DNA of 64,000 nt from an uncultured Candidatus Saccharibacteria bacterium (GTDB taxonomy: Bacteria > Patescibacteriota > UBA1384 > DTJR01): NCBI GenBank assembly GCA_964487045.1, contig CAZAOT010000003.1:136983-200982 (forward strand), read 5' to 3'. Shown piece by piece: positions 13,481-63,894 of this stretch (its first letter is position 1; each line of letters begins with the position of its first letter). The notes beneath the pieces were generated by a model. The model was not told the origin of the DNA. It was given only the letters and a program-made list of their open reading frames with translations, and made no database searches. A program made the translations under genes and the position numbers.

Positions 13481-16400
13481 ATGAAGAGAAAGTTCTCTAT
13501 TCAAAAAGGTTTTGTTTATGGTGTGACTGCAATCGCAGTGCTTGCTGTCGCCGTCGGACTTGTAGTAAGGTTTTCATCAGTCTCAGCCGATATAGCTGCT
13601 GATTCTAATGCGGACGCGGTATCGGAGTGTTATCAGAGCTATACCTCATGGCCATATAATGTCAGCAACAGATGCTATGAAACAATGGCTGCGGCTTGCA
13701 CTAGAACTGAAAGACTAGCAACTAAGACCCAAGCGACACCTACCACTGAAGAAAAAAGGGTCTATGGTGACAAGGTTCAGGCGTGGGATGTAGGCATTAA
13801 TAACGGAAATAGAAATGCAAAATTCCGACTATTGATAAATGCAAAACGAACCGGAACCACTGGCCCGGTCAGGTTTGATTTTGCTTTGCAGCCGACCATG
13901 ACCAATTGGGGCGGTAATTCAGATAGAATTTATATTATCTTTGGTGACGGCCTTGGCTATAAAAAAACATATAATTATATCGCGAAAAACACGGTTTGGT
14001 CGTCTTATATAAATAAAGAAATTTCGACTGGAAGTGTTAATATAATGTTCAGAGGAAAGAATGAAGATGGATGTATAAAGAGCGTTCTGAACATTTCTCA
14101 AGCTTTGGCTACCCCTACCCCGTCTCCTTCTCCTTCAGTAAGTCCTTCGCCAAGCCCATCTCCTTCCTCAACACCAACTCCTGATCCAAATTTACTTAGT
14201 GGTTTGAAGGGTTGTTATTATAATGGCAAGACCTTTGGTTCATTGCAGACCAACCGAAATGAAAATCTGAACTTCATCTGGGGTTCTGGTCCGGCTACTA
14301 CTAAAACAACTGCTGATAATTTCGCAGTACGATGGGAAGGTTATATCATTCCTAAATATACTGAAGCCTATACATTTAAGCTGAACTATGATGATGGCGC
14401 TAGAATTTGGATTGGTGGCAATCAATACATTAACGATTGGAATAATGGCAATACCAGAAGTAAGACTTCCCCGGCCATTTCGATGCAAGCAGGTGTGGCC
14501 GTACCGATCAAGATAGAGTATTTCGATAATACTGGTAATGCTGAGGCTCAACTTTCGTGGAAGAGTGCGCAACAAGCCGAGCAAGTGATTCCTGCCAGTA
14601 ACTTAAAGCACCATAAGGACTATATTTGTGCTGCAGGTTCTCAAACTTCAACTCCAACCCCAAGTCCATCACCCTCCAGAACTCCTTCGGTGACAACATC
14701 AAGTCTTGCTTCGGTAGTCCCGATCTTCTCAGCTACACTAGGCACAGCTGCAAGCTCAGATGGCAAAGGAGTAACTTTTACAGGTACTATTAATCCTATT
14801 GTTACTGGCTCAATACCAAATACAAATTACACCTTCTGGTGGAATTGTAACTCAGCAAAGACAACATATAGTACTATATATGCAGAATGCGGAGCTCCAG
14901 AGACCGTAGGTGTATCTCCTACCACTGATATGAAGGCGAATGGACGAAGGTTTTTGAACCTGAATGTTAATTCCAAATCGGCGACACGTAATTTCTCGAC
15001 TGCCATAAGAGGCAATACAGCACTTCTGTTGATCGAGAGAAATGGCAAGACGGCTGTGGCAAAATCAGTCTATAACTTCACGCCTGCTCTTCCATCGCAA
15101 ACCCCTGTAATCAGTGTTGCTCCAAGCGTTGCGCCAAGTCCAAGCATTGCGCCTCCTACAAGAACTCCAGTCCCAGCACTCTCGGTTAACCCAGTAGTTA
15201 GTATTGATACAACAAAGCTCAGAGATGGTCTCAAGGCTGATTACTTCAAAGGAACTGATCTAAAGGATGAGAATTTGACAACAACCAAGCTCGAGAAGAA
15301 CATCAACTTCAACTGGGGTGGGGTGGCACCAGCGACCGGAGTACCTGCAAGCGGTTTCTCCACCAGATTTACATCAAAAGTACTAGCTCCAGCAACAGGT
15401 GATTACTCAATCGGATTTAATCACAACGATGGCGTGAGGGTCTGGCTTGGTGGAAGATTGATAATTGATCAATGGAAGGATTGGGATGCTACCAAGTGTG
15501 CAGCCGATACTTCAAAGTGTGTTCTGGATGCTCAGGTATACAAAGCATCAGCTAAGGTGCGCCTTGAGCAGGGTAAGTACTATGATCTTAAGGTTGAGCA
15601 TTATGATAAGAATGGAAGAGCAGTCCTAAAGATGTTCTGGAAGAGGCCATCCTCAACTACTGGTGAAGTTGTAAGTCAGAGTGTTTTCTTCACTCCATAT
15701 AACCCAAATCCTCCATACGGCGGAGGAACTGGATTGATGGGAAGTTATTATGCAACCGCGAACTTAACAGATCTAAAGATGCGAAGAACAGATAGAGTAG
15801 TAAATTTCAACTGGGGTGCTAACGGACCTGCAACTCAGTGGAAAGACAAGTTCTCGGCTAGATGGGAAGGTTTTGTGCAGCCTCGATTTACCGAAAAATA
15901 CACTTTCATAGTTCAGGTAAATGATGGTGCGAGACTCTGGATCGATGGGAAGCAAGTTATCAACAAGTGGACTGACTCTGCAACAACAGCAACTTATACT
16001 GCCGATGTGAGCTTAACTGCCGGTAAGAAATATCCAATAAAGCTTGAAATGTACGAAAATACAGGAGATGCAGTGGTTATACTCAGATGGAAGAGCGCTA
16101 GTGAAAAAATAAATGATGTTCCAGCGGCTGCACTGTTCCCAATTGCAGTCCCAACTCCATCACCAACTCCTTCAAGAACAGTGAGTACAATCCCATCTAT
16201 CACTCCTTCTAGAACGGCATCAGTTGTACCGTCACCATCACCATCACCATCGCCATCCCTCTCCCCTGTTGACCATATTACTAAAACCTTCCAGCCAGGA
16301 TTCACCGGTATCTACATCCCTGACGCTGAGAAGCCACAGTTTACAAGCGCGTTAGCTGAGAAAGGATTGAGTCTCTACCAATATGGTCCGCTAGTCTATG

Positions 16401-16873
16401 ACAACAGCACACCTCCTAGAAAGACTTGGCTGACGGCAATCAATGTGTTCAATCATAAGATCGGATACTACGTTAAGAACCCAGGTACAAATGCAGTGAC
16501 TGTTGATCTACGATTTGACACACAACCTGAGGAAGCAGCTGATATGATGGTGTACAAGGGTTGGAACTTGCTTGCTAATTCCTCAACTACAGACAAGAAG
16601 CTTTCCGATCTAGTGTACGAGAAGAGAATCTGTACTGACGAGAGCGCTTCTGCTGGATGTGATGGCTACTCTGCAACCGTAAACTTCGGCAATCTCTCGT
16701 ATGGTTGGAAGGGTCAAGGAAAAGCTGCATATACTATTATTCATGAACTAAATGATCCTAGGGCAACCGATCAGACAGAAGAGCCATTCAAAGATATAAA
16801 TGTTAATTACGAAGGAATCGACAACGTAAAAATTTCCGCTGGTAAACTCTTCTGGATCTACTTCTTCGACTAA
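13481..16873 (+). CDS. large secreted/cell-surface protein with three PA14 domains and Pro/Ser/Thr-rich linkers
   Basis: 1130 aa with an N-terminal hydrophobic anchor or signal. There are three PA14-like modules (approximately 14170-14590, 15200-15690 and 15720-16120) with the pattern F..RW.G.I.P....Y.F....DDG.R.WI.G. Linkers of the PTPSPSPS type separate them. Confidence 0.8.
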   Translation: MKRKFSIQKGFVYGVTAIAVLAVAVGLVVRFSSVSADIAADSNADAVSECYQSYTSWPYNVSNRCYETMAAACTRTERLATKTQATPTTEEKRVYGDKVQAWDVGINNGNRNAKFRLLINAKRTGTTGPVRFDFALQPTMTNWGGNSDRIYIIFGDGLGYKKTYNYIAKNTVWSSYINKEISTGSVNIMFRGKNEDGCIKSVLNISQALATPTPSPSPSVSPSPSPSPSSTPTPDPNLLSGLKGCYYNGKTFGSLQTNRNENLNFIWGSGPATTKTTADNFAVRWEGYIIPKYTEAYTFKLNYDDGARIWIGGNQYINDWNNGNTRSKTSPAISMQAGVAVPIKIEYFDNTGNAEAQLSWKSAQQAEQVIPASNLKHHKDYICAAGSQTSTPTPSPSPSRTPSVTTSSLASVVPIFSATLGTAASSDGKGVTFTGTINPIVTGSIPNTNYTFWWNCNSAKTTYSTIYAECGAPETVGVSPTTDMKANGRRFLNLNVNSKSATRNFSTAIRGNTALLLIERNGKTAVAKSVYNFTPALPSQTPVISVAPSVAPSPSIAPPTRTPVPALSVNPVVSIDTTKLRDGLKADYFKGTDLKDENLTTTKLEKNINFNWGGVAPATGVPASGFSTRFTSKVLAPATGDYSIGFNHNDGVRVWLGGRLIIDQWKDWDATKCAADTSKCVLDAQVYKASAKVRLEQGKYYDLKVEHYDKNGRAVLKMFWKRPSSTTGEVVSQSVFFTPYNPNPPYGGGTGLMGSYYATANLTDLKMRRTDRVVNFNWGANGPATQWKDKFSARWEGFVQPRFTEKYTFIVQVNDGARLWIDGKQVINKWTDSATTATYTADVSLTAGKKYPIKLEMYENTGDAVVILRWKSASEKINDVPAAALFPIAVPTPSPTPSRTVSTIPSITPSRTASVVPSPSPSPSPSLSPVDHITKTFQPGFTGIYIPDAEKPQFTSALAEKGLSLYQYGPLVYDNSTPPRKTWLTAINVFNHKIGYYVKNPGTNAVTVDLRFDTQPEEAADMMVYKGWNLLANSSTTDKKLSDLVYEKRICTDESASAGCDGYSATVNFGNLSYGWKGQGKAAYTIIHELNDPRATDQTEEPFKDINVNYEGIDNVKISAGKLFWIYFFD

Positions 16874-28679: not shown

Positions 28680-29070
28680 AAGACCCGGGCGAGGCCGGGT
28701 CTGGTGAAGTCGTGATGCCTGGTCTAACCAGGCCTGGTTTGGTGAAACGCCCTGGGGAGGGCTTTCGAACGGTCGTCCTTGTTCCCTAGCGATCATGCCG
28801 GGTCAAGGGGTTGCAGGCGTTGAGCATATCTACTGGCGATCCGGTGTTCTTACCCGGGCGCTTTCGGTGCTCGCGGCACAGCGTGCGGCCTGAGGCCGCT
28901 TTGTGATGTAGCCTCGAGAGGCTACTATGGGTTCGGCTGCATGTTCTTCGTCTTGCGCGCGTGTCCTACCGGACTTACATGCCACGCCCTGAAAGCCAGG
29001 GCTTCGAACGCCACGCTCCGCATGATGCGGAGGTTCAACTTGTCCCACAGAGACAGCTAGCCCTCCCCAA
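28680..29070 (-). ncRNA. rnpB: probable RNase P RNA (bacterial type A-like)
   Basis: A roughly 390-nt GC-rich (about 60%) block in an AT-rich genome with no credible ORF. The minus strand carries, in canonical order, AAGUCCGG (P4 5' strand; rc of 28969-28976), CCAUAG, GAAAGCGCCCGGGUAAGA (cf. GGUAAGAGCGCACC) and CAGACCCGGCCU (cf. ACAGAACCCGGCUUA; P4 3' strand) about 280 nt downstream. A hairpin plus U-tract follows at the 3' end. Confidence 0.55.
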
Positions 29071-29115
29071 GGCTTAAACATATAGTATTACAACTCTTTA
29101 ATTTGTCAAGACCCT

Positions 29116-31213: not shown

Positions 31214-32911
31214 TTGGCTCAAAAAAAATCTTGCAAACATTGCAAAAAAGAATTTGTTGTTGAAGATTGGGATATCAATTTTTTAAAAAAGATTTCTCCC
31301 ACTTTTGCAGGGCAAACTTTCGAAATACCCCTTCCAAGCCTATGCCCAGAGTGCAGAGAGATAAGGCGAGAACTTCTGAGAAATGAAAGAGTTCTATATA
31401 AAAGAAAGTCTGATAAGTCTGGCGAAGAGACAATTTCTTGTTTTTCACCAGATAAGGATTTGATTGTATATTCACCCCAGGAGTGGTGGGCGGACGATTG
31501 GGACGCATCCGATTATGGTGTCGAATTTGATAAAAATAAAACATTTTTTGACCAGTATATGGAGCTTTATAAAAAAGTTCCGAAGCTTGCGCTTTCAAAT
31601 ACAAACAATGAAAATACTGAATTTGGTAATTATATAGATGGCGTGAAGGACTGCTATATGTCTTTTACCTGCTATTTCGGAAGCGAAAAAGTCCTTTATT
31701 CGTATGTTTCTTATTCAGACAAGAACTGCGTGGATATGACATTCAGCGAAGAAAATGAAAATTGCTACTATCTTTACAATTCAACGAAAAATTATAACTG
31801 CTATTTTTGCGACAATATACATAATTCGAGAGATTGTCGGTTTTCTTTCGACCTGATCGGGTGCAGTGACTGTTTGTTTTGTTCTAACTTACGCAGAAAG
31901 CAGTATTGTATTTCAAACAAGCAGTATTCACGTGATGAGTATTTGGAAAAAATTAAAGAATATAATTTTGGGTCTTATGCCAAAACCAAAGAGTATCAGG
32001 AAAAACTTGCTCAAATCAAAAAAGATTCGATTGTTAAATTTGCTAATTTCGTAAATTGTGAGAATTGCAGCGGGGATGACAATATAAACTGCTCTAATGC
32101 GATAAAGTGTTTTGGTTGCAATGATGTGCAAGACTCTAAATATACTTATCGAGCTGTGCATATGAAGGATGCGATGGACTTTATGTGCGGTGGCGCCGAA
32201 AGTGTTTATGAGGTTTCCAATATCGGCTATGGGATTGGATTCTATTTCTGCGAGCACTGTATCACTGGCAACAATCTTTTCTACTGCAGACATTGTATGA
32301 ATTGTAACGATTGTTTCGGCTGTGTTGGTTTGAGCCGCAAGCAATATTGTATTTTAAACAAACAATATTCTAAAGAAGACTATGAAAAAAAAGTAGCAGA
32401 AATCATAGGATTCATGAGCGGAAATGGCGAATGGGGAGAAATGTTCCCGATCGACAAAAATGTCTTTGCTTACAATGAGACCTTGGCCAACGACAATTTT
32501 CCAAAAACAAAAGAAGAAGCCTTGGCCTTCGGGTGTAAGTGGCAAGACAATGATTATTCGCTCAAGCATGACGGACCTTTTTACGAGCCTAAAGATGATA
32601 TTGCAGACTATAAAAATGACGAGACTGAAAGACAAAAGTTACTTTCTGGAATATTGAAATGCGAAGTATCGGGCAAGCCTTATAAGATCGTGCCACAAGA
32701 GTTAGCTTTTTATCTCGAACACAATCTTCCGGTTACGAGAAAGCATTTCGATATTAGATTTAAAGAGAGACTGGAAAAGCGTAATCCAAGGACTCTTTAT
32801 CATCGTCAGTGTATGAACGAAGATTGCGAAAATAAATTTGAAACAACCTATGCGCCAGATAGACCAGAAAAAGTATTTTGTGAATCATGTTATCAAAAGG
32901 AGCTAACGTGA
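31214..32911 (+). CDS. Cys-rich multi-zinc-ribbon protein, paralog 1 of a 5-gene tandem family
   Basis: 565 aa with an N-terminal CxxC...CPxC ribbon, repeated CxxC blocks and a C-terminal ...KFETTYAPDRPEKVFCESCYQKE. It is homologous to the four genes that follow. Confidence 0.8.
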   Translation: MAQKKSCKHCKKEFVVEDWDINFLKKISPTFAGQTFEIPLPSLCPECREIRRELLRNERVLYKRKSDKSGEETISCFSPDKDLIVYSPQEWWADDWDASDYGVEFDKNKTFFDQYMELYKKVPKLALSNTNNENTEFGNYIDGVKDCYMSFTCYFGSEKVLYSYVSYSDKNCVDMTFSEENENCYYLYNSTKNYNCYFCDNIHNSRDCRFSFDLIGCSDCLFCSNLRRKQYCISNKQYSRDEYLEKIKEYNFGSYAKTKEYQEKLAQIKKDSIVKFANFVNCENCSGDDNINCSNAIKCFGCNDVQDSKYTYRAVHMKDAMDFMCGGAESVYEVSNIGYGIGFYFCEHCITGNNLFYCRHCMNCNDCFGCVGLSRKQYCILNKQYSKEDYEKKVAEIIGFMSGNGEWGEMFPIDKNVFAYNETLANDNFPKTKEEALAFGCKWQDNDYSLKHDGPFYEPKDDIADYKNDETERQKLLSGILKCEVSGKPYKIVPQELAFYLEHNLPVTRKHFDIRFKERLEKRNPRTLYHRQCMNEDCENKFETTYAPDRPEKVFCESCYQKELT

Positions 32912-34629
32912 ATATTTGCAAAGTATGTAACAAGCAATTCGAAGTTACCAAGGAAGACGAAAAGTTTCTTGAGAAAATATCCCCTAGTTTCGACGAAGAG
33001 ATATTTCTAATTCCTCCCCCAACCCTTTGCCCTGATTGCAGGAATAAAAGGAGACTGGGAGTTAGAAATGTTGTAAATCTTTACAAGCGTAAATGCGATC
33101 TTTGCTCAAAAGAAGTTGTTTCGATGTATTCGCCTGACAAGACGGACATTAAAGTCTATTGCTCTTCTTGTTGGTGGTCGGATAAATGGGACTATAGTGA
33201 TTATGCGAAAGACTATGATCCATCTAGAAGCTTTATTGAGCAGTTAACTGAGCTTAAGAAGGAAGTACCAGCTCCTGCGCTCCTTCACGTTAATTCAGAA
33301 AATAGCGAATATATAAATTTTTCAAACGACAACAAAAATTGCTATCTAGTTTTCTTAGCCGGAAGAAATGAAGATGTATATTATGGATACTGGGCGGAAG
33401 ATAGCAGAAATTGTGTTGATACATCGTTTAGTGCTTATTGCGAAATGTGCTACGAGGGAGTGCTGCTTGGAAATTGTTATAATGTCCACTGGTCAATAAA
33501 TTGTGGTACTTGTAGGGATTCATATTTTATTGAAGACTGCGCAGATTGTAGTGATTGCATATTGTGCAGCGGACTTCTAAAGAAGCAGTATTGCTATAAA
33601 AACAAACAACTATCGAGAGAAGAGTACGAAAAGGTTAAGACGGATTTTCTTGCCAATCTAGAAACAAATCTAGATGATTATAAACAAAAATTCCGACAAG
33701 TAGTCCTGTCCCAACCAAAAAAATACTCCCAAATGCTCCGTAGCGAAGATTGTTCTGGCGATAATATTTTTGATTCTAAAGGCTGTAATAATTGTTTTAG
33801 AGTATCTAAGAGTGAAGATTGCAAGTATTGTTATGATTTAGTTAGCGGAAAAGATTCATACGATGTAACGGGTTTTGGAATTCCGATTGAGCTGGTTTAT
33901 GAATCTCAGAATATTGGATTGGGTTCGGCTAGATGCGCTTTTATTAGTTTTGCTTACCAGCTAAGTGACTCTTATTACTGTGAACATTGTTATTATTCCA
34001 GAAATTTATTTGGTTGCGTTGGGGCTAAAAATCATGCAGAGTTTTGTATTCTTAATAAAAAATATTCCAAAGAAGAATATGATAAATTAGTCCAAAAAAT
34101 TATCGCTGACATGCAGAAAAGAGGAGAGTGGGGAGAATTTTTCCCATCTAGCTTCTCTGCATTTGGCTACAATGAAACTTTGGCGAATGAGTATTATCCT
34201 CTTGCAAGAGAAGAAGCAGAAAAATTAGGTTATAAATGGCAAGAAGTAACCGGAGATGTGCAATATGACGGCGAAGCGTATAATCCTGTTTCGATAGAGC
34301 GTTATAAGACAGATGAGCAAGAAAGAAATAAGCTTCTTGGGAGTGTATTAAAATGTATTAAGTCTGGAAGGCCTTTCAAAATAATGCCCCAGGAGCTACT
34401 TTTTTATATCAGGCATAATATTCCAATTCCTAGAGTACACTATGCTGTCAGGATGACCGATCGTCTTAACTCGATTAACAAAAATGAGCTTTTTCACCGC
34501 CAGTGTATGTGCGAAGAGGTAAATCATAACCACGAAGGAAGGTGCGCGAAAGAATTTGAAACATCTTATTCGCCAAATAGCCAAGAAAAAGTTTATTGCG
34601 AAGATTGTTATTGGGAGAAGTATAGATGA
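32887..34629 (+). CDS. Cys-rich multi-zinc-ribbon protein, paralog 2
   Basis: 580 aa with the same architecture. Its start overlaps the previous stop. Confidence 0.8.
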   Translation: MLSKGANVNICKVCNKQFEVTKEDEKFLEKISPSFDEEIFLIPPPTLCPDCRNKRRLGVRNVVNLYKRKCDLCSKEVVSMYSPDKTDIKVYCSSCWWSDKWDYSDYAKDYDPSRSFIEQLTELKKEVPAPALLHVNSENSEYINFSNDNKNCYLVFLAGRNEDVYYGYWAEDSRNCVDTSFSAYCEMCYEGVLLGNCYNVHWSINCGTCRDSYFIEDCADCSDCILCSGLLKKQYCYKNKQLSREEYEKVKTDFLANLETNLDDYKQKFRQVVLSQPKKYSQMLRSEDCSGDNIFDSKGCNNCFRVSKSEDCKYCYDLVSGKDSYDVTGFGIPIELVYESQNIGLGSARCAFISFAYQLSDSYYCEHCYYSRNLFGCVGAKNHAEFCILNKKYSKEEYDKLVQKIIADMQKRGEWGEFFPSSFSAFGYNETLANEYYPLAREEAEKLGYKWQEVTGDVQYDGEAYNPVSIERYKTDEQERNKLLGSVLKCIKSGRPFKIMPQELLFYIRHNIPIPRVHYAVRMTDRLNSINKNELFHRQCMCEEVNHNHEGRCAKEFETSYSPNSQEKVYCEDCYWEKYR

Positions 34630-36323
34630 TAAATAAAGTTTGCAAACAATGCAGCACAGAATTCGAAGTAACTGACACTGATTTAGATTTTTATAAAAAA
34701 ATCGCTCCTACTTTTGATGGCAAGACTTTTGAAATTCCTACTCCAACATTGTGTCCTGATTGTAGGAGACAGAGAAGGATAGCTTGGAGAAATGTTGGAA
34801 ACTTTTATGTCAGAAAAAGCGATTTGTCTGGCCGACAAATAATTTCCTGTGTTGCTCCTAACTCAAAATTCAAAATTTATCACAATGATGAGTGGATGTC
34901 CGATAAATTTGATCCCTACGAATATGGCCGGGATTTTGATTTTTCTACGCCATTTTTTGAGCAATTGCACGAGCTTAGCTTAGAGGTACCGAGACCTCAT
35001 ATGAATTCCGCTCGTAATGAGAATAGTGAATATATAAATAATTCTTCGGACTGCAAAAATTGTTACTTAATAGAAAATTCTACCGAAGCTGAGGATTCAC
35101 TTTATTCTTTAGGCCTTTTTTATTCCAAAGATTGCGTTGATTGTTTTAAAGCGTTTAAAAGTGAAAACTGCTACGAATGTATTAATATTGAGAAGTGCTA
35201 CGGCTGCCATTTTTGCAAAGACTGTGTCAACTGTTCCGAATCATTTCTACTCGAAGATTGCACTGGGTGTAGAAATTGTTATGGTTGTACGAATTTATCA
35301 AATAAGCAGTATTGGATATTTAACGAGCAAAAAACAAAAGAGGAATTCGAAAAGTTTAAACAAATTTTTCTTGAATCTGATATCTCAGAGCGCTCCAAGC
35401 TGATTGATAAGATTAGTGATCTCAGGTCTGATTTACCCAAAAAATTCGCACATGTTCTATCAAATGAAAATTGTAGAGGCGATTATATTTTTCACTCAAA
35501 AAAATCAGATGGTTTTTTTCTCGATAATTGTGAAGATGTGAGCGATTCTACAAACTTGAGTTATTGTAAGGATTATTTCGATGTTGACTATTGGGGTGAT
35601 AATTCCGAAGTCTGTTATGAATCGGCCGAAATAGGAACTCAAGCCCATAACATTTTATTTTCCAGAAAATGTCATGGCAATATTCGCAATATTTACTACT
35701 CGCTTGACTGTTGTTTTGGGTCGCATGACTTGTTCGGATGCTGCGGGATCAAGCATGGAGAGTATTCAATTTTGAACAAAAAGTATTCATCTGAAGAATA
35801 TGAAAAAATGGTTGCTCGAATAATCGAGCATATGCAAAAAAATGGCGAGTGGGGTGAATTCTTCCCATACAAAATGAGCCAATTTGCTTATAACGAGACC
35901 TCGGCGATGGATTATTTTCCATTAACTAAAGAAGAGGTTTTGAAATTAGGATCTTATTGGCAGGATCAATCATCTGATCAAAAATATAATGACGAAGGAT
36001 ATAAGCCACTTGAGATCGGTCAGTATGCAGTTCAGGAAAAAGCTGATGAATTATTAAAGTCTGTATTAGTCTGCGCCAAATCATCTAGGCCATATAAAAT
36101 CCAGCCACAAGAGCTAGCTTTTTATCTTAAGCATAACTTGCAAATTCCTATCTTACATCCAGATGAAAGATATAAGTTACGTTTTAATCAAATCAATCCT
36201 CAAAAAACATGGCATAGAAAGTGTATGAACGAAGGCTGTAATAACGAATTCGAAACAACATATTCCCCTGATCGTCCAGAAAAAGTCTATTGCGAAGATT
36301 GTTATCAAAAGGCGGTATTGTGA
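34626..36323 (+). CDS. Cys-rich multi-zinc-ribbon protein, paralog 3
   Basis: 565 aa with the same architecture and a 4-nt overlap with paralog 2. Confidence 0.8.
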   Translation: MINKVCKQCSTEFEVTDTDLDFYKKIAPTFDGKTFEIPTPTLCPDCRRQRRIAWRNVGNFYVRKSDLSGRQIISCVAPNSKFKIYHNDEWMSDKFDPYEYGRDFDFSTPFFEQLHELSLEVPRPHMNSARNENSEYINNSSDCKNCYLIENSTEAEDSLYSLGLFYSKDCVDCFKAFKSENCYECINIEKCYGCHFCKDCVNCSESFLLEDCTGCRNCYGCTNLSNKQYWIFNEQKTKEEFEKFKQIFLESDISERSKLIDKISDLRSDLPKKFAHVLSNENCRGDYIFHSKKSDGFFLDNCEDVSDSTNLSYCKDYFDVDYWGDNSEVCYESAEIGTQAHNILFSRKCHGNIRNIYYSLDCCFGSHDLFGCCGIKHGEYSILNKKYSSEEYEKMVARIIEHMQKNGEWGEFFPYKMSQFAYNETSAMDYFPLTKEEVLKLGSYWQDQSSDQKYNDEGYKPLEIGQYAVQEKADELLKSVLVCAKSSRPYKIQPQELAFYLKHNLQIPILHPDERYKLRFNQINPQKTWHRKCMNEGCNNEFETTYSPDRPEKVYCEDCYQKAVL

Positions 36324-37966
36324 AAAAATGCATAAATTGCAGTGCTCAATATGATGTGACCGACCAAGAAAAATCTTTTCTAAAAAAGATGGATTTGCCA
36401 GAGCCGAAAATTTGTCCGGAGTGTAGGTCGCAGCGAAGATGGGCGCTAAGAAATCAAAGCACTCTGTATAAAAGAAAGTGTGATTTTACCGGTAAGGAAA
36501 TGGTCTCGCTATATGCATCTGATTCAAAGCATAAAGTTTATGCTGAAGATATTTGGTGGTCTGACAAGTGGGATGCCATGGATTATGGCAGAGATTTTGA
36601 TTTTTCGCGGCCGTTTTTTGAGCAATTCAGAGAGTTGCAGTTAGATGTTCCAAGAAGGGGGATGCATCAAGATGGAACAAATGAGAACTGCGAATATATA
36701 ACTTTCGGAATGGGAAATAAAAATTGCTACTTGGCATTTGCGTGTTTCAATTGTGAAAACACTTACTTTTCATTTTTTTCGCTAATGTCTAAGGAAACGA
36801 TTGATTGTCTTTTAGCAATAAGCGGCGAGCTTTTGTATGAATGTATCCACTGCGACAAATGTTATAAATCGTCATATTTAAAAAATTGTTCAAGCTGCAC
36901 TGAATGCTATCTGATGGAAGACTGTAGCGGTTGTAGCAACTGCATTGGATGCAAAAATGTTAATAATAAGCAGTATTATATTTACAACAAACCAGCGACG
37001 AAAGAAGAATTCGAATTCTTAAAACAGAAACTCGAGACGGGTGGTATGAAAAAAGAGAAGGAAAAATTTGATAAGTGGAAGCTAAGTGTTCCAAATAGAT
37101 TTGCTCATATCATAGCCTCACAAGATAGTGATGGGGACTACATCTACAATGGAAAGAATTGTCATAATTGTTTTGGAATTTTGATACAAGGCGCGGAGGA
37201 TAGTGCTAATTGTCAGATGAGCGGTGCGCAGGCTAAAGAAATGTTTGATTGTTCGATGGCGGGGCAGGGAAGCGAACTAATATATGAGATGCAAGCAACT
37301 AGTGGTGCATACCATAGTGCATTTGTTAATTTCTGTAGGTTTTCCAAATTTGTTTATTATTGTGATTGCATCAGCAATTGCGAGGAGTGTTTTGGATGTG
37401 TTGGGCTGAGCAATAAAAAATATTGCATTTTAAATAAACAATATTCCAAAGAAGAGTATGAGGAATTGAAACCAAAGATTGTTGAGCATATGAAAAAAAC
37501 TGATGAATGGGGAGAGAATTTTCCGCTTAAAAATTCACCTTTTCCATACAATGATACGTTGGCGCAAAATTATTATCCGCTAACAAAAAACGAAGCAGAA
37601 AAACTTGGCTTGAATTGGAAGGATCCTGAAGACAATAAGACGATCAAACAAACGGTGAAGGTCGATCCTAATATTGATAATGTAGATGAAAAAATATTGA
37701 ATGCTGTATTGTGTTGTAATAAATGTGGCAAAAACTATAAAATTATTCCCCAGGAATACAGGCTTTATAAGATGCTCAAAGTTTCAATCCCTGACCATTG
37801 TCCGTCTTGCAGATATCAGGAAAGAATTGATCAATTTAAGATTTCTAAATTATATGACCGAGAGTGTATGAACGCGGGTTGTAAAAATAAGTTCAAAACT
37901 CTTTATTCCAAAGAGAGTCCCGAAATAGTCTATTGTGAAAGTTGTTATCAAAGAATAATAATATAG
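36290..37966 (+). CDS. Cys-rich multi-zinc-ribbon protein, paralog 4
   Basis: 558 aa with the same architecture. It overlaps paralog 3. Confidence 0.8.
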   Translation: MRRLLSKGGIVKKCINCSAQYDVTDQEKSFLKKMDLPEPKICPECRSQRRWALRNQSTLYKRKCDFTGKEMVSLYASDSKHKVYAEDIWWSDKWDAMDYGRDFDFSRPFFEQFRELQLDVPRRGMHQDGTNENCEYITFGMGNKNCYLAFACFNCENTYFSFFSLMSKETIDCLLAISGELLYECIHCDKCYKSSYLKNCSSCTECYLMEDCSGCSNCIGCKNVNNKQYYIYNKPATKEEFEFLKQKLETGGMKKEKEKFDKWKLSVPNRFAHIIASQDSDGDYIYNGKNCHNCFGILIQGAEDSANCQMSGAQAKEMFDCSMAGQGSELIYEMQATSGAYHSAFVNFCRFSKFVYYCDCISNCEECFGCVGLSNKKYCILNKQYSKEEYEELKPKIVEHMKKTDEWGENFPLKNSPFPYNDTLAQNYYPLTKNEAEKLGLNWKDPEDNKTIKQTVKVDPNIDNVDEKILNAVLCCNKCGKNYKIIPQEYRLYKMLKVSIPDHCPSCRYQERIDQFKISKLYDRECMNAGCKNKFKTLYSKESPEIVYCESCYQRIII

Positions 37967-38277
37967 GAGATGCAGTGAATAATATTAAAACCGCAATAAT
38001 TAACTCGCTTGGCGTGTTCGCTTATGTTGTAGCTATCGCGACTGTGATGAATAACGCCGAAAAACTTTTCGGAAAGGAAGATACAATTGCGACCGGTATC
38101 GCTTTTCTTATGTTATTTACCCTCTCGGCAGGTGTCGTAGGATCATTGATTGTTGGTAAGCCAATATTTATGTATCTCGATGGCAAGAAAAAGGAAGCGG
38201 TTAGTCTTCTCGCTTGGACACTCGGATGTATAGCGGTAATCACATTAATTGTTTTGCTTTATCTTGGGCTTAGATAA
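37942..38277 (+). CDS. small membrane protein (3 predicted transmembrane helices) embedded in the paralog array
   Basis: 111-aa hydrophobic ORF that overlaps the paralog 4 stop and abuts the paralog 5 start. Confidence 0.5.
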   Translation: MLSKNNNIGDAVNNIKTAIINSLGVFAYVVAIATVMNNAEKLFGKEDTIATGIAFLMLFTLSAGVVGSLIVGKPIFMYLDGKKKEAVSLLAWTLGCIAVITLIVLLYLGLR

Positions 38278-40001
38278 TGGCTACATTAAAATCTTGCAAA
38301 CAGTGTAACTCCAGTTATGAAATTGGAGATTGGGATAAGGAATTTCTTAGCAAAATTTCCCCTACTTTTGATGGCAAGACTTTTGAAATACCGGAGCCGG
38401 AGCTCTGCCCAGAATGTCGGAGGCAGAAAAGATTGATGTGGAGGAACAATAGATCGTTATATAGTCGCAAATGCGATATGTGCTCAAAGCAGATAATTAC
38501 TACCTTCTCTCCAGACAAGCCGTTTGCTGTATTTTGCCAAGATTGCTGGTGGTCGGACAAGTGGAATCCTGAGGACTATGGACAAGATTTCGATTTTAAT
38601 AAAACATTTACTGAACAGTTTGCGGATGTTATGAAAAAAACACCGCGGATAGCACTCATGAATAAGAATTCTGAAAATAGCGAATACTGCCATTATGCTG
38701 GAAACAATAAAAATTGTTATCTGTGCTTCGCTGGCTCTTGGAATAATGAAAACTGTTCTTATGGATATAGATTTGGGGGTTGCAAGGATTGTTTTGACTG
38801 TCACTTTTTAGAAAAATCAGAACTTTGTTATCAAATATTTCATGGGGCAAATAATTTTAAGTGTGCCTTTTGTGATTATATTTATGACTCCAGCGAGTGT
38901 TATTTCTCTTATGATTTGAAAGGGTGTAAAAATTGCATATTCTCGACTGGTTTGAGAAATAAGGCTTATTTTGCATTCAATAAACCGTGCACAAAAGAAC
39001 AATTCGAAGAACTTAAAATGCACATGGAAAGTAATACATCTATAGCGAGAGCCCTAGCAAAATTTGATGCAATAAAAAGAGAAGCGCCTAAGGTGCCAGT
39101 AGTTCAGTTAAAGTGTGAAGATTGTGAGGGTGATAATCTGAGCGGGTGTAAATCCTTGAGAGAAGCATTTGATATTAATGATATGGAGAGTGGTAAGTAT
39201 GTATTAATTGGAGCTTTATCTAAGGATGTGATGGATTGCACGGCAGTTGGCCTTGGCGAAACACAACTTTGTTATTATTGTATGTCGGTCGGCGACAGTG
39301 CATATAATTGCCTTTTCTCAAATGGTATTTGGTCTTCAAGAAACATTATTTACTGTGACTCTATAATCAGCTGCGAAGATTGCTTTGGCTGCGCATCTAT
39401 CAAAAAACAAAATCATTGTATTTTAAATAAAAAATATTCAGAGCAAGAATATGTGCAGATAGTCGCTAAAATTATTGAACATATGAAGGCTAATGGAGAA
39501 TGGGGAGAATATTTAGATAATATGCTCTGCCCATACTATTATAATGAAACTTTTGCTCATGAGTTTTATCCTCTACAGCAATCTGGTGCTGAAAAAATTG
39601 GTTGTAGTTGGCAAACAAAGGATTATTCTCCAGAATACAAAGGAGAGAGCTATGTTGCAGACGACAGCATCCTAGCATTTCAAGACGTGAATAAGGCCGA
39701 AGAGCTGATCAAAGGAATTATAAAATGTGAAGTAACTGGTAAGCCCTTCAAAATCACGCCGAGTGAATTAGCTTTTCATGTAAAACAAAGGATTGCTCTT
39801 CCACTCAAACATCCAAATGTACGATTCGAAGAAAGATTCGCCAAGCTAAACTTTCCCAAGCTTAGTGAAGGTGAATGCTGTTGCGATCAGCAAGGGCATA
39901 GCCACGATGGTAAATGCCAAAATAAGTTTAAGACAACCTATCCACCAGAAAAGAAGGAAAAAGTTTTCTGTGAGTCATGCTATCAAAAAGAAATATTGTA
40001 G
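38277..40001 (+). CDS. Cys-rich multi-zinc-ribbon protein, paralog 5
   Basis: 574 aa with the same architecture. The C-terminus is ...KFKTTYPPEKKEKVFCESCYQKE. Confidence 0.8.
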   Translation: MATLKSCKQCNSSYEIGDWDKEFLSKISPTFDGKTFEIPEPELCPECRRQKRLMWRNNRSLYSRKCDMCSKQIITTFSPDKPFAVFCQDCWWSDKWNPEDYGQDFDFNKTFTEQFADVMKKTPRIALMNKNSENSEYCHYAGNNKNCYLCFAGSWNNENCSYGYRFGGCKDCFDCHFLEKSELCYQIFHGANNFKCAFCDYIYDSSECYFSYDLKGCKNCIFSTGLRNKAYFAFNKPCTKEQFEELKMHMESNTSIARALAKFDAIKREAPKVPVVQLKCEDCEGDNLSGCKSLREAFDINDMESGKYVLIGALSKDVMDCTAVGLGETQLCYYCMSVGDSAYNCLFSNGIWSSRNIIYCDSIISCEDCFGCASIKKQNHCILNKKYSEQEYVQIVAKIIEHMKANGEWGEYLDNMLCPYYYNETFAHEFYPLQQSGAEKIGCSWQTKDYSPEYKGESYVADDSILAFQDVNKAEELIKGIIKCEVTGKPFKITPSELAFHVKQRIALPLKHPNVRFEERFAKLNFPKLSEGECCCDQQGHSHDGKCQNKFKTTYPPEKKEKVFCESCYQKEIL

Positions 40002-59954: not shown

Positions 59955-61663
59955 ATGTTGATTGGGGAGCCAGAGTCTAGTGTCGGGCGATTAGTCGAAT
60001 CAGCGAGGGAAGGCAATAGATTAGCCTTTAATCAGCTGATGTCGAACTTTCATGACTGTCTCTACAACTATATTGCAAGGATGGTTCATGACCCGATCGA
60101 AGCTGAAGACATTACGCAGGAGGCTTTCATCAAGGCTTACCGCAATCTTCCCGGCTTTAGGGGGGCGTCAACTTTTCAGACCTGGCTTTATCGTATTGCC
60201 AGTAATCTGATAATCGATTCGTTCAGGCGCCGAAAGAAAAGAGAAAACACCTGTTCTCTCGATGCTCCGCTCGACACCGAAGAAGGAAGTATGGCGCGTG
60301 AGCAGGAAGACTCTCATGAACCAGGGCCGCAGCGAAGTCTAGAAGTAGACGAGCTGCGACGGCAGGTGCATAAAGCGATAAGGCAGCTCAGTCAAAGCTT
60401 AGGAGGGTGATGATACTTTACGAGCTGCAAGGGCTGTCTTACGAGGAGATTGCCGATGTTGTCGGTTGTCCCCTTGGTACGGTTAAGAGTCGTATATTCA
60501 ACGCTCGTGTTTCACTTCGCATTGTTCTTGAAGCAACACAGGCAAGAAGGGAGGAAGATGACTTGGCGCTACGACCAGTTGCAGGAAAGGCCGTTGATCA
60601 CGAGGCGAAGTTTTCAAGCTTTGCCAAGCAAGTCAAGGACCACATTGGTACCCTGGCAGCAGATCGTGGTTATGTCGGCCTAGACATCAATGCTTTGTGG
60701 CAACAAACATGTCGGCATATCGTTGCTGGACTGGATGCTGCTACGAGGCTGACACCTGTGCAAACATTGTCATTGCTCAAACTAGCCGCGACCCACGTCG
60801 TAGATATTGAAGGAGAGAAAGCCAAGCTACTTGGCGACATTTCTTTGGGTCAAGACGAGTCTGTAGTCGTAAGCGGTAGTGGGTCGTTTGACGACCAAGT
60901 TATCCAGCTACCGAACGCCCAGGCTCTGCTAGATGCGTTGCCAGCGGATGTTGGGCCAGCGTATGGGCTTAGGGTTTGGTGCGGTCTTAGTCACAAAAAG
61001 ATCGCCACAACCCTTGGTATTGAGCCTAACACTGTTCGAAGTAAGCTTTCCAAGGCACGCGAACTTTTGATCGAAGCGCTTAGCAAGGAGGCAGATCAAC
61101 TAGGCGCGGCAGTCCATGCTACGCTCGAGGCAGGAGGTGAAGGGTTGAGTAAGGTCAAGGGCGCCGAAGTGGGTAGCGAAGAAGCAGTCGCGTTCATCGC
61201 TGACAAGATCGGGCTGGCTGATCATCAGCTCGAGGTCGCCGAGGTCTGGGACTCGCTCGTGAAGATCGTCCCTGAACCGGCACCGCAACCCGCGGCTGCT
61301 CCGCCTGTCGCAGCCCCGGCCGTTCCCGCTACACCGCCTGCACCTGTCGCTCCGGCGACCATGCCGGTTCTTCCGACTCAGGCTGTTGCGGCTGCGCATC
61401 TGGGTCGGCAGATGACTGAGCTGGAGCTCGCTGTTGGCTTCGTCATCGTGCAGTCTGCGCTGGTGAAGGATGACGATGTGATCTTCCGCTTCCTGCGCAC
61501 ACGCCAGGATGTCCTGGCTGATCTGGTGCAGTTTGCCAACGATCAGTTCGGGGATCAGCCTGCTTCCGAGGCGCAGATCGAAAACCTGATCGCGGAGGTT
61601 GGCAAGTTCGTGCGTCACGTTATACCTGGTCAGCCTGTGGCTGACCAAGCCGAATCCGCCTAG
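59955..61663 (+). pseudogene. ECF-type sigma factor disrupted by a frameshift (region 2 in 59955-60410, region 4 at the start of 60407-61663), with a long C-terminal extension containing a second region-4-like HTH
   Basis: ORF1 has the ECF sigma70_r2 sequence ...DITQEAFIKAYRNL...TWLYRIASN. ORF2 begins MILYELQGLSYEEIADVVGCPLGTVKSRI (region 4.2) in a different frame. A second LPxxxxxxLxxxxGLSHKKIATTLGIEPNTVRSKLSKAR lies about 170 aa later. The segment is about 60% GC. Confidence 0.55.
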
Positions 61664-61760
61664 CGCTTCGCGCTAGATCGGCTCTACGGGGCCCTGTCAG
61701 ACGACAGGGTCCCGTTTTCTTTATCTTGAGAATTCAGGCCTAAAGGATTAGAATAGTCAC

Positions 61761-62246
61761 ATGGAAAATTTTTTAGATTTAGTTAAGAAAAGGCATTCGG
61801 TTAGAGTTTTTGACGCAAAACAAATTCCTCAAGATGATATCAAATATATTCTTGAGGCGGCTCAGTTTGCGCCAAGTGCATTTAACGCGCAGAATTTTAA
61901 GTTTATCGTTACTACTGATCGCGGAAAAATTAAAAAAATTGCCGAAGCGACAGAGATGGTCTTTATCGCTAATGCTCCGGCGGTAGTAATTGCGATCGGC
62001 ACTGACGAGGACAATAAATATAATATTGTTGATGTTTCGATTGCGCTTGACCACCTACAGCTTGCGGCAGCAGAGAAAGAAATTGGGTCATGTTGGATCG
62101 GTACGCTTGGGCATTGGCATGTCGAAGAGGCGCTGAATATTTCAGAATTTGAAAAAGTTTATGCTGTCATGCCACTTGGCTACGACGCTGGAAAATTGAT
62201 GCCTAAGAAGCGCAAAGAATTCGACGAACTTTTTGTTATTGAATAA
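61761..62246 (+). CDS. nitroreductase-family protein
   Basis: 161 aa. KRHSVRVF and FAPSAFNAQ motifs fit the NADH/FMN nitroreductase fold. The gene is AT-rich. Confidence 0.75.
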   Translation: MENFLDLVKKRHSVRVFDAKQIPQDDIKYILEAAQFAPSAFNAQNFKFIVTTDRGKIKKIAEATEMVFIANAPAVVIAIGTDEDNKYNIVDVSIALDHLQLAAAEKEIGSCWIGTLGHWHVEEALNISEFEKVYAVMPLGYDAGKLMPKKRKEFDELFVIE

Positions 62247-62263
62247 AATTCCAAGGAGGGGCA

Positions 62264-62710
62264 ATGGCTTGTGAATGTGGGGTAAATCAAGTGAATGCTA
62301 AAGTGGGTAGAGTCAATGCACTCTGGACTTTGGCCTTAGCGCTCGCAATTTGGTACACGCCTTACTGGTGGTTGTGCTTCGTGCTTTTGGCTGACTTTTT
62401 TATCAAAGGAGCTTTTCATCCAAAATACTCGCCGTTTAGTCGGCTTTGGGGGTATCTACTTAATCTGATTCATGAAAAACCAAGATTAATTTTCGCTCCG
62501 CCAAAATTATTTGCTAACAAAGTCGGCCTAGCATTTTCGATTGCGATTACGGTCAGTCTAGTCGGAGGATATTATACGGCTGCGGAAATATTTACAATAA
62601 TCCTCGGAATTTTCGCATTTCTAGAATTTGCTTTTGAGTTTTGCATGGGATGCTGGGTGTATAATTTGTACTATCAAATTGTAGGTTCTCCGAAAATAAA
62701 AAAAGACTAA
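62264..62710 (+). CDS. small polytopic membrane protein (DUF4395-like)
   Basis: 148 aa with four hydrophobic helices and N-terminal Cys residues. Confidence 0.4.
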   Translation: MACECGVNQVNAKVGRVNALWTLALALAIWYTPYWWLCFVLLADFFIKGAFHPKYSPFSRLWGYLLNLIHEKPRLIFAPPKLFANKVGLAFSIAITVSLVGGYYTAAEIFTIILGIFAFLEFAFEFCMGCWVYNLYYQIVGSPKIKKD

Positions 62711-62904
62711 GCAATTACAAATTTTTCAGCGAAGTATAATTCGTTCGTCATTTATGTTTCTCAGACACACTAGCTCCGTTCGGCAATGGTCTTCAAAACA
62801 TAGAATGGCTCACTTGTGAATATGTACGTGAAGTCTCGAAAAATTACTCAGTAAGCAATTTTATTGTACAAATTATAATTTTAAAAAAAGGGGGGAAGAG
62901 GAAA

Positions 62905-62930
62905 GGCCCCGAGTCGGTTGACGCGGGGCC
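62905..62930 (-). terminator. hairpin GGCCCCG...CGGGGCC with a minus-strand U-tract
   Basis: The stem is followed on the minus strand by TTTCCTCTTCCCCCCTTTTTTT. It lies downstream of the GC-rich minus-strand gene. Confidence 0.55.
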
Positions 62931-62949
62931 TTGTTGTAGCGGGGGAGGT

Positions 62950-63894
62950 CTAGGCGGCGGGATCTACGAGGATCGGAGTCATCAACCGGGTGTTCATGTT
63001 GACGATTCCTGATAGAATTTCCAGCCTATCCAGCATCTCTTGCGGGAAGTGCTGCTTGATGAGGGTGTAGCTGAACTCCCTTAGCTGCCAGGTCTTCTCG
63101 ATGGCTAGCTGCTTTTCATATCCAGCTTCGTCCCAATACACCGCAGAGGTATGCAGAACCATCCCGCCATACTCGGCGATCTCGCCGGACTTCCAGTTCT
63201 TCCACACGATGTCGGCGGCAGTCAGGATCTGGGAAGCCAGGTCCAGGTCGAATGGTCCCACGATCATGGCGGTATTGAGGCGCTCGAGCCAATCGAGCCC
63301 CTGTCCGATGGCGATGATGTACTCTCCGTGCCTGTTGTCGGTGATCTCGCGACGTGTCTCCTCGATGTAACGGATGTGTTCGAGATTACCAGTGAGCATT
63401 GGGAGTATATCGCGAGCGACCCGGTCAGTCATGTCCGGGTGGAAGAGTCGCAGAGTGTGGATCAGCTCGGCGGGTTCGACAGAGGTTACTTCGCCAAGGT
63501 CCAGGATCTGGTCTTCGCGCTTGCCGTGAATGATCAGGCGGTCGGTGTTGGTTTCGATACCTGTCATGACCGGCAGGAGCACCTGACTACCGAAAGTCCG
63601 CTCGATCTGCTGTTCAAGGTCACGAATGTGATCGCGAGCGGCTTCGACGTTGTAACCGAACCCGCGACAGCCGTGCCACTCTCCGTCGTGGATCTCGTCC
63701 TCAGGTGGTGGTGGATCGGTCTCAGAGTAGTGGTATGTCAGGAGAGCCAGACAGTCAAAACCATCATCGAAGTAGTTACGCCTGACCCAGTCGCCGACCA
63801 CCTTGTGAAGATATGGCCACCCGAGGTTGAACCTCCCGCCGATGTTGCGAAACGGCTGAAAGTATCCCTTGGGTAGGCGGGTGAAGTCATGCAT
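62950..63894 (-). CDS. hypothetical protein in a GC-rich island (possibly N-terminally truncated by the window)
   Basis: 314-aa ORF at about 60% GC with its own terminator and no recognisable domain. The reading frame may continue upstream beyond the window end. Confidence 0.5.
   Translation of the reverse strand: MHDFTRLPKGYFQPFRNIGGRFNLGWPYLHKVVGDWVRRNYFDDGFDCLALLTYHYSETDPPPPEDEIHDGEWHGCRGFGYNVEAARDHIRDLEQQIERTFGSQVLLPVMTGIETNTDRLIIHGKREDQILDLGEVTSVEPAELIHTLRLFHPDMTDRVARDILPMLTGNLEHIRYIEETRREITDNRHGEYIIAIGQGLDWLERLNTAMIVGPFDLDLASQILTAADIVWKNWKSGEIAEYGGMVLHTSAVYWDEAGYEKQLAIEKTWQLREFSYTLIKQHFPQEMLDRLEILSGIVNMNTRLMTPILVDPAA

Follow-up and report, generated by a model that had tools for sequence, protein, structure and literature searches.

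The window analysed here is a stretch of 64,000 nucleotides (nt) from an uncultured Candidatus Saccharibacteria bacterium (GenBank assembly GCA_964487045.1, contig CAZAOT010000003.1, positions 136,983 to 200,982 of the forward strand). Bacteria of the candidate phyla radiation (CPR, or Patescibacteria) make up a large share of bacterial diversity and have genomes of ∼1 Mb. The window is an ordinary piece of a CPR chromosome, with genes for ATP synthase, trigger factor, HtrA, CtpA, ligA and gatCAB, and near its centre lies a tandem array of five paralogous open reading frames (ORFs) for cysteine-rich proteins, numbered P1 to P5 by position. An original prediction, made from the DNA letters alone, had placed these five ORFs on the + strand at 31214, 32887, 34626, 36290 and 38277, and all five do match one family profile. 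The profile, built from 83 family members, scores P1–P5 over their full length at 675–835 bits (E=1e-204 to 1e-253) and detects no sixth family copy in the 64 kb. The proteins are 548–574 amino acids (aa) long and 36–44% identical to one another, the moderate identity that had been expected, and their genes take up 13.7% of the window, close to the 14% first estimated. None of the five contains an internal stop codon, which agrees with the earlier view that they are not pseudogenes. The motifs first quoted for the family are present in the alignment, namely the N-terminal CxxC...CPxCRxxRR finger, DYGxDFDF, GEWGEFFP...YNETLA and the C-terminal EKV[YF]CExCY. The cysteine content had been put too high, at roughly 8–10%; it is 6.0–7.5%, or 34–43 Cys per paralog. 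The genes of the array and the gene directly after it are as follows:

31214–32911, + strand: P1, 565 aa, TTG start behind AAGGAG, 727 bits with the family hidden Markov model (HMM)
32908–34629, + strand: P2, 573 aa from GTG 32908 (the longest ORF, from ATG 32887, has 580 aa)
34626–36323, + strand: P3, 565 aa, the most conserved lineage and the reference for the alignment and the structure model
36320–37966, + strand: P4, 548 aa from GTG 36320 (the longest ORF, from TTG 36290, has 558 aa)
37975–38277, + strand: small membrane gene, 100 aa, GTG start and TAA stop, three hydrophobic segments
38277–40001, + strand: P5, 574 aa
40048–40305, + strand: 85-aa gene directly 3' of the array, two to three transmembrane (TM) segments, GTG start behind AAGGAGG

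The locus is a translationally coupled operon of six genes, five ancient paralogs and one small membrane protein. Stop and start codons overlap as GTGA at P1/P2, ATGA at P2/P3 and GTGA at P3/P4, each time behind a Shine–Dalgarno-like motif; at the first junction GTG 32908 sits behind AAGGAG and overlaps the stop codon of P1. Because the GTGA overlaps lie behind such motifs, GTG 32908 and GTG 36320 are likely the true starts of P2 and P4. The single, translationally coupled operon that had been predicted is upheld by these junctions and by a TAATG overlap at the start of P5, but the five family genes are not consecutive. A conserved 100-aa gene with three TM segments, missed in the original prediction, separates P4 from P5, with a TAGGAG motif after the P4 stop and the TAATG overlap at its own end. 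Its product is 66% identical to the 100-aa product of the gene that follows a pair of family genes in a relative (locus L087; L-numbers denote the loci of relatives), and the gene is also called by a gene caller in an independent Logan assembly identical to the region. Since this membrane gene is coupled between P4 and P5, the unit comprises at least six co-translated genes. Membership of the 85-aa gene in the unit is uncertain; its product has a weak DUF5676 match (E=0.004) and a holin_4 match (E=1.4e-7) that falls below the cut-off, and the gene is also called in L169. Protein P0269 of a public assembly is identical to P5. Promoter and terminator scans of the region gave counts equal to the shuffle background.

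The family had not been recognized at first sight, and in keeping with this no curated family in Pfam, NCBIfam or PADLOC and no solved structure matches it. The Pfam search of the window proteins returned only sub-threshold finger and LIM matches, the NCBIfam search only a weak match to a CxxC-x17-CxxC model (TIGR04272), and the scan of PADLOC-DB v2 no family-wide match, with three chance-level matches (E=0.013–0.08) over short stretches. Pfam matches to Med15 KIX lie on a helix and were discarded as spurious. Neither solved nor viral structures gave a match to the protein, and those homologues that bear a name in the large databases are all termed ‘hypothetical protein’. Searches of the literature on CPR cysteine-rich families, on treble clefs combined with a β-helix, on PF13451 and on Peregrinibacteria protein families turned up no description of the family. 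Hence, the family and its architecture are new, while the building blocks, treble-clef fingers and a β-solenoid, are known fold classes.

An exhaustive profile search over 1.84 billion representatives yielded 5,902 clusters at 50% identity with E≤1e-3, of which 2,497 have E≤1e-30, and 149 of the best 150 matches are full-length proteins of 527–601 aa. More than 585 stretches from GTDB species representatives encode a relative. The best 80 of these are almost all from CPR bacteria, comprising Peregrinibacteria, Peribacteria, Gracilibacteria and Abawacabacteria together with some Saccharibacteria, Nomurabacteria, Staskawiczbacteria and Berkelbacteria; mis-binning probably explains two outliers. 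The closest named genome among the matches listed is ‘candidate division WS2 bacterium ADurb.Bin280’. The family is thus very large, uncharacterized and almost exclusive to CPR/Patescibacteria. Tandem arrays are the rule, with 94 arrays of 1–11 genes in 80 non-redundant loci. Small non-family genes inside the arrays are seemingly common and differ between lineages, and the arrays of L005 (5170–8231 and 17307–17792) and L170 (15143–15553) are interrupted by non-family genes for two DUF2079 membrane proteins, a 161-aa bPH_2-like protein and a basic 136-aa protein. In two loci, L055 (CP060226.1) and L077, the family genes break into many short ORFs under translation table 11, which could reflect pseudogene arrays or an alternative code such as UGA for glycine; Gracilibacteria read UGA as glycine.

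The architecture of the proteins was defined by an AlphaFold2 model, by profile comparison and by the co-variation of cysteines. The model of P3, made from an 83-sequence alignment, has a predicted local distance difference test (pLDDT) score of 85.6 and a predicted template-modelling (pTM) score of 0.88, with the termini above 90 and the centre at 68–85 in pLDDT. Internal duplication was assessed by profile–profile comparison of slices of the alignment with hhalign, which relates residues 1–58 (finger A) to residues 478–526 (finger A'; probability 99.0%, E=8e-18), residues 58–100 (finger B) to residues 524–565 (finger B'; probability 97.7%), and residues 125–236 to residues 268–386, the two halves of a central solenoid (probability 99.7%, E=1.7e-26). 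By this comparison the protein is internally duplicated three times over. The layout is the finger pair A–B, a linker carrying DYGxDFDF, solenoid half 1 with a helical hairpin, solenoid half 2 with a helix, the GEWGEFFP/YNETxA segment, a variable linker and the finger pair A'–B'. In P3 these elements are encoded as follows:

34626–34925, + strand (residues 1–100): finger A, residues 1–58, with Cys6/9/43/46 and a basic CRxQRR...RN helix; finger B, residues 59–100, degenerate here
35016–35783, + strand (residues 131–386): narrow, cysteine-lined β-solenoid with halves 131–236 and 271–386 and a variable helical hairpin, 237–270, between them
35784–36065, + strand (residues 387–480): helix and GEWGEFFP/YNETxA segment (pLDDT >90), then variable linker 441–480
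36066–36320, + strand (residues 481–565): finger A', degenerate here (Cys483 and His511 kept); finger B' with invariant Cys533/538/556/559

Conservation across the family peaks at residues 381–440, where G410 and Y422 are invariant and E408, W409, N423 and E424 nearly so. Basic residues of finger A (R47, R51, N56 and R63) are likewise conserved, as are their equivalents in A' (R515, R519 and N524). P1–P5 contain no segment resembling a TM helix or signal sequence (maximum 19-residue hydropathy ≤1.21; grand average of hydropathy −0.56 to −0.74). From this, and from the conserved finger that forms the N-terminus, we conclude that P1–P5 are probably cytoplasmic. The isoelectric point (pI) is 5.3–5.9 for four paralogs and 7.5 for P4. 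A DNA-mimic role, considered by analogy with pentapeptide-repeat proteins, was set aside, the proteins being only mildly acidic and one of them neutral.

The terminal fingers carry the recognizable metal sites. The four ligands of finger A (Cys 6, 9, 43 and 46) and those of finger B' (Cys 533, 538, 556 and 559), each set in a CxxC...CxxC type of arrangement, are 98–100% conserved family-wide. In a 271-sequence alignment, Cys68/86/89 of finger B co-occur with a phi of 0.99–1.00 and are present in ∼20% of members, and Cys486/514 of finger A' co-occur with a phi of 0.98 and are present in ∼21%. Such all-or-none co-occurrence is how real Zn(Cys)4 sites behave, and the predicted complement is four Zn(Cys)4 sites, those in A and B' being constant and those in B and A' facultative. 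In the window, P1 has A and B' intact with B and A' degenerate, P2 and P5 have A, B and B' intact, and P4 is the sole copy with an intact A' (CNKC...CPSC), the loop of its finger A being short by nine residues. The predicted zinc content is two per chain in P1 and P3 and three in P2 and P5, via B, and in P4, via A'. The second ribbon, CDxC...CxxCWW, had been assigned to every paralog; it is intact in P2 and P5, whereas P1 and P3 are without all four Cys and P4 keeps one. The two copies with an intact finger B, P2 and P5, share an 8-residue His-rich insertion in B' (EEVNHNHEGR at 34500–34560 and DQQGHSHDGK at 39870–39930), which may be an extra set of metal ligands or a marker of a subfamily.

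The central cysteines behave differently. They recur in the solenoid at a spacing of 9–12 residues and vary almost independently of one another (phi ≤0.33), from which they are taken to be core residues, neither coordinated tetrads nor disulfide pairs; the idea that the CxxC pairs of the solenoid form a stack of zinc sites was dropped for want of co-variation. The earlier description of multi-zinc-ribbon proteins therefore holds for the terminal fingers but is overstated for the chain as a whole. A role as a redox or metal-cluster protein, such as an iron–sulfur (Fe–S) carrier or a metal store, would place a cluster at the CxxCxxCxxC run of residues 212–221 together with C182, C372 and C381. 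It would draw on the 87–98% conservation of C182, C215, C218, C221, C372 and C381 and on the high total of cysteines. We consider it highly improbable: the spacing is unlike the CxxCxxCxxxCP of 4Fe-4S ferredoxins, the Pfam scan gave no match to Fer4 or a related model, and the remaining solenoid cysteines vary independently. The run itself is incomplete in P1, which lacks one of the four Cys, and in P5, which lacks two, and this argues against a universal Fe–S site.

The fingers and the solenoid each resemble known proteins in part. The pattern of A/A' and B/B', in which a helix begins at the second knuckle, is the same as in zf_Tbcl (PF13451), zf_Tbcl_2 (PF23477) and TIGR04272. The window proteins reach 15.0–16.8 bits with the two Pfam models, short of their gathering thresholds of 24 and 27, and among the 83 aligned members zf_Tbcl matches weakly in 28 and zf_Tbcl_2 in 47 (best E=2.3e-5). 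These families have no assigned function and, unlike the family described here, do not cover a ∼560-aa architecture with a central solenoid. A search of PDB sequences with a single protein and with the profile matched B' to the second finger of LIM over 35 residues (E=5e-4), and the LIM model of Pfam (PF00412) gave 17.4 bits against a cut-off of 22.9, aligning only over profile positions 19–57, that is, the second finger. LIM proteins (for example CRP1, PDB 1ctl and 1b8t) likewise use two adjacent zinc fingers as a protein-binding module, but they are eukaryotic adaptors without a β-solenoid. The alignment is limited to one of the fingers, and the likeness is probably one that treble-clef fingers share in general.

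In the PDB search the centre of the protein gave a non-significant match to the Tenebrio antifreeze protein (E=4.8). Narrow β-solenoids are found in the spruce budworm and Tenebrio antifreeze proteins (1m8n and 1ezg), the ryegrass ice-binding protein (3ult) and the curli subunit CsgA (8c50), but in none of these comparators is the solenoid duplicated and embedded between zinc-finger modules. The insect and plant antifreeze proteins are secreted and have a Thr-rich ice-binding face and disulfide-bonded coils, whereas the present family has no signal peptide, no Thr-x-Thr ladder and no cysteines that co-vary as disulfide pairs. The Pentapeptide and Hexapep models of Pfam, which detect tandem repeats of five or six residues, did not match; the pentapeptide and hexapeptide (left-handed β-helix, LβH) proteins differ in repeat length and cross-section, and the family lacks the active-site features of acyltransferases and carbonic anhydrases. 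The solenoid is shared remotely by a phage family, phrog_15341, which matches it in all but one of P1–P5 (best E=6e-9; in P3, residues 132–367 align with profile positions 28–257 of 276). That family, itself of unknown function, covers the solenoid alone, without the terminal finger modules. A tblastn search of 50,697 phage records and of plasmid records found no match and IMG/VR gave a single marginal, partial one, and an origin of the family in phages or plasmids was rejected on these grounds.

The moderate identity of the paralogs had been read as a sign that the duplications were old or that the genes were fast-evolving and diversifying. Comparison with relatives sharing synteny with the window (NifS/NifU, CtpA, LemA, HtpX, ligA and gatCAB) distinguishes between the two. 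These relatives carry two family genes between htpX and ligA (L085 and L087/L088), at least three (L007), at least eight after ligA (L170) or at least ten (L005), and each window paralog has orthologs among them. The identity to these orthologs is 74.7% for P1 (L170), 69.1% for P2 (L170; 61–62% in L085/L087), 84.2% for P3 (L085; 75–76% in L087, L007 and L005), 69.6% for P4 (L007) and 73.5% for P5 (L170; 74, 71 and 68% in the protein database). For the syntenic genes, the corresponding values against L085 and L087, respectively, are 67 and 61% for ligA (77.6% against L170), 64 and 64% for gatA, 62 and 59% for htpX, 53 and 57% for gatB, 43 and 40% for gatC and 65 and 68% for LemA, and CtpA is 61.2% identical to its counterpart in L170. 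P3, at 84 and 76% in L085 and L087 against 40–68% for seven syntenic housekeeping genes, is better conserved than any other gene around it, and P1, P2, P4 and P5 equal essential genes in this respect.

The ratio of nonsynonymous to synonymous substitution rates (dN/dS), which had been suggested as a check among the paralogs, is meaningless between sequences 36–44% identical. Of the ortholog pairs, only P3 and its L085 counterpart are free of dS saturation (dN 0.109, dS 1.53, dN/dS 0.07), and because of this saturation amino-acid identity relative to the syntenic housekeeping genes was used instead. The order of the array also differs, running P1-P5-P2-... in L170 and P1-P2-P3-P4-s-P5 in the window, where s is the small membrane gene. 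DNA repeats among the paralogs are confined to short conserved motifs (60–86% identity), and gene conversion or cassette shuffling was rejected, since the paralogs have no long DNA tracts in common that recent conversion would leave. One-to-one orthologs with identities equal to or above those of housekeeping genes, together with a dN/dS of 0.07, refute the diversifying, fast-evolving alternative. The duplications are old, as the other half of that reading had it, and the paralog lineages are under strong purifying selection.

The same comparison bears on whether the paralogs might be subunits of one hetero-oligomeric or filamentous structure, stacked through the ends of their solenoids or through their fingers in the cytoplasm. 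All the genes are tightly coupled in translation and strongly conserved, which would suit such an assembly, and β-helical proteins of the bactofilin type build cytoskeletal structures. The number and order of copies, however, vary between close relatives in a way that is hard to fit to a fixed stoichiometry, and in the model the ends of the solenoid run into helices and terminal domains, the pTM of 0.88 indicating a compact monomer. A filamentous assembly of this kind seems quite improbable, and the fixed multi-subunit assembly of the original prediction is unlikely as well, since the copies in close relatives number 2, 3, 5, 8 or more, or 10 or more and stand in differing orders.

Where the lineages differ was examined by comparing column entropies within the P3 orthogroup (14 sequences) with those in the rest of the family (255 sequences). 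The ratio of orthogroup to family entropy is lowest in the solenoid, at 0.21, this being a segment that is variable across the family and the most conserved of all within the orthogroup. Of 32 positions conserved in the lineage and variable in the family, most lie in the solenoid (residues 131–199 and 320–347), and the helical hairpin (237–270) and the linker (441–480) are variable everywhere. Such a pattern is the signature of a common scaffold with lineage-specific functional surfaces.

Clustering of the ORFs that neighbour family genes in the 80 loci revealed two recurrent partners. One is a VirD4/TraD-like ATPase of ∼750 aa (PF02534, PF10412 and PF12696, with a DUF8128 N-domain), present in 22 loci; in 17 of 25 cases its gene lies downstream of the family genes and shares their strand. 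When truncation of contigs is allowed for, 13 of 58 arrays have it no more than 1 kb downstream. It has a Walker A motif, GKSGSGKS, no TM segment was found in it, and it scores below every curated cut-off for type IV coupling proteins (T4CPs), its best matches being conju_CD1115 (E=4.5e-16) and, in PADLOC, mad8 (E=3.7e-13). The association is reciprocal: in an independent metagenome scan anchored on the ATPase, a same-strand family gene ends ≤600 nt upstream of the ATPase in 41 of the 61 loci (out of 80) that extend ≥1.8 kb upstream, and in 54 of the 80 one or more complete family genes lie within 8 kb. In these ATPase-anchored loci no partners recur strongly other than family genes and genes for the second partner, a TrmB-like winged-helix protein. 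Family copies next to the ATPase partly form a subfamily of their own, the nearest neighbour from another locus being ATPase-adjacent for 24 of 52 such copies against 37 of 297 others.

The TrmB-like protein (∼260 aa; PF01978, E=2e-12) occurs in 33 of the clustered loci. Its gene is upstream of the family genes and divergent from them in 32 of 42 cases, and has this position at 23 of 65 arrays when truncation is allowed for. In L170, the 256-aa gene that lies divergently upstream of the array does not resemble TrmB. The pairing of a divergent TrmB-like gene with a soluble VirD4-like ATPase (L001, 9128–9901 and 11757–14000; L089–L168) recurs in Peregrinibacteria and Gracilibacteria and would merit a study of its own. 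Regulators of the TrmB family, such as archaeal TrmB, typically sense small molecules, and this suggests a reading in which P1–P5 are enzymes that differ in substrate, with GEWGEFFP...YNETxA and the solenoid forming the active site and the TrmB-like neighbours acting as ligand-sensing regulators of the pathway. Residues 381–440, which contain the motif, are the most conserved family-wide and TrmB-like genes are sometimes repeated between family genes, but the proteins resemble no enzyme family in Pfam, NCBIfam or the PDB and the TrmB-like gene is absent from the window. An enzymatic role is accordingly regarded as distinctly unlikely.

In modules of conjugative T4CPs (VirD4/TraD/TrwB) the relaxosome genes adjoin the coupling protein, as the family adjoins the ATPase in many relatives. 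In the conjugative Dtr module of R388, trwA-trwB-trwC, the genes for an accessory protein and a relaxase flank that for the coupling protein. The finger pairs could by analogy bind DNA or RNA, and the proteins might be regulators or DNA-processing accessory factors of a VirD4-like translocase. This agrees with the conserved basic residues of the finger helices, with a gene position directly upstream of the T4CP-like ATPase, a frequent site of conjugative DNA-processing genes, and with a level of constraint similar to that of informational genes. Yet four of the five proteins are acidic, neither an HUH nor any other nuclease or relaxase motif nor a Pfam DNA-binding match was found, treble-clef and LIM-like fingers are equally often protein-binding, and five to eleven paralogs of 570 aa would be unusual as accessory DNA-binding factors. 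The linked ATPase departs from conjugative T4CPs in having no TM anchor and a DUF8128 N-domain and in falling below the curated cut-offs, and neither a relaxase nor virB4 was seen nearby. We regard nucleic-acid binding as the principal function as possible, though doubtful.

The ATPase association also raises the question of export. CPR bacteria are epibionts, and their type IV secretion system (T4SS) is important for growth on hosts (PMC12102498). The family proteins might be secreted effectors, or effectors translocated into hosts along a type IV-like route in which the VirD4-like ATPase serves as coupling protein, the solenoid being stabilized by disulfides outside the cell; the cysteine-rich narrow solenoid does resemble secreted antifreeze proteins, and small membrane proteins are interleaved in the arrays. 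Against this, the proteins have neither a signal peptide nor a TM segment and start with a conserved zinc finger, they end in an invariant finger and not in a disordered charged tail, the solenoid cysteines lack the paired co-variation of disulfides, and purifying selection above the housekeeping level is atypical of host-targeting effectors. The ATPase itself has no TM segments, and most patescibacterial T4CPs are not near virB4. Secretion as effectors is therefore judged very improbable, and the host interaction considered in the original prediction is possible only through the ATPase link of other lineages.

A role in defence had been raised as well, and here it would mean an anti-phage or anti-mobile-element system, or a sensor, whose paralogs recognize different invaders. 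Tandem expansion with a variable copy number would suit it, as would the mad8 match of the linked ATPase and the solenoid shared with phrog_15341. P1–P5 themselves have no PADLOC match, however, phage and plasmid records contain no close relatives and IMG/VR gave only the one marginal match, the synteny is that of housekeeping genes, and the lineages are old and under strong purifying selection, with no sign of diversification or gene conversion. The proposal was not borne out, and we consider it extremely improbable.

Tentatively, we propose that P1–P5 are cytoplasmic binding or adaptor modules in which recognition by the solenoid is specific to each paralog, and that family members act with the ATPase where it is adjacent. 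The conserved finger modules would supply a common docking or nucleic-acid-binding function and the solenoid face of each paralog would recognize a different partner. In lineages with an adjacent ATPase the family proteins would work with this motor, for example by selecting or presenting its cargo; in the organism of the window the array would be expressed as one unit with the ATPase not nearby.

Several observations weigh against this proposal. Neither the ATPase nor the TrmB-like gene is found in the 64-kb window (tblastn, best E=0.45), so that the array has no VirD4-like ATPase ∼1 kb downstream on the same strand, and P1–P5 are only 34–42% identical to the ATPase-adjacent copies; given this distance, the ATPase link may not apply to the window proteins. 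About 75% of all arrays have no adjacent ATPase, and those of close relatives sit among housekeeping genes. What speaks for an adaptor role is the pattern of conservation and the neighbourhood only, and the strongly conserved GEWGE/YNET segment could be a catalytic site instead of a docking surface.

A recent survey counted 5,713 VirD4-like T4CP homologues in Patescibacteria, only 148 of them near virB4, and reports that the T4CP homologue of Ca. Southlakia epibionticum was not essential for epibiotic growth (PMC12102498). Thousands of these ‘orphan’ VirD4-like ATPase copies are at present unexplained (PMC12102498), and the family is put forward as a candidate partner. The family could be their missing counterpart in a three-component machine specific to the CPR, made up of a motor, a repertoire of adaptors that selects DNA or protein cargo and control by the TrmB-like protein; we rate this as rather unlikely. 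Were it so, the machine might be used in exchange with, or exploitation of, host cells, and P1–P5 would be the adaptor repertoire of one organism whose motor is encoded elsewhere in its genome. The family occupies 9 kb of the window and, in relatives, up to 20 kb or more, and it is as constrained as DNA ligase or GatA; given such cost and conservation in so small a genome, its role in these organisms must be a central one. The analysis provides a domain map, predictions of zinc stoichiometry, likely positions of partner specificity and, in the soluble VirD4-like ATPase, a candidate partner.

Other features of the window were noted in passing. In the gap between htpX and ligA, where L085 and L087 carry two family genes, there is a GC-rich island of ∼400 nt (28690–29100; 51–66% GC against ∼38% around it) that has no Rfam match at E≤0.1 and no tRNA or tmRNA, folds somewhat better than its shuffles (z=−2.25) and may represent a structured RNA that has escaped annotation. 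At 4122–5675 the + strand encodes a large serine recombinase (Resolvase, Recombinase and Zn_ribbon_recom domains), and the 3' end of its gene overlaps a tRNA gene at 5577–5659 on the − strand, an overlap that may mark the boundary of an integrated element. The region 13481–16873 encodes a 1130-aa protein with three PA14 domains and GLEYA domains that is likely a surface adhesin binding carbohydrates; the 490-aa ORF after it has no Pfam match. Finally, the GC content rises to 49–52% at 60001–64000, from ∼40% elsewhere, and this segment encodes a protein of 418 aa with an N-terminal match to sigma-70 region 4.

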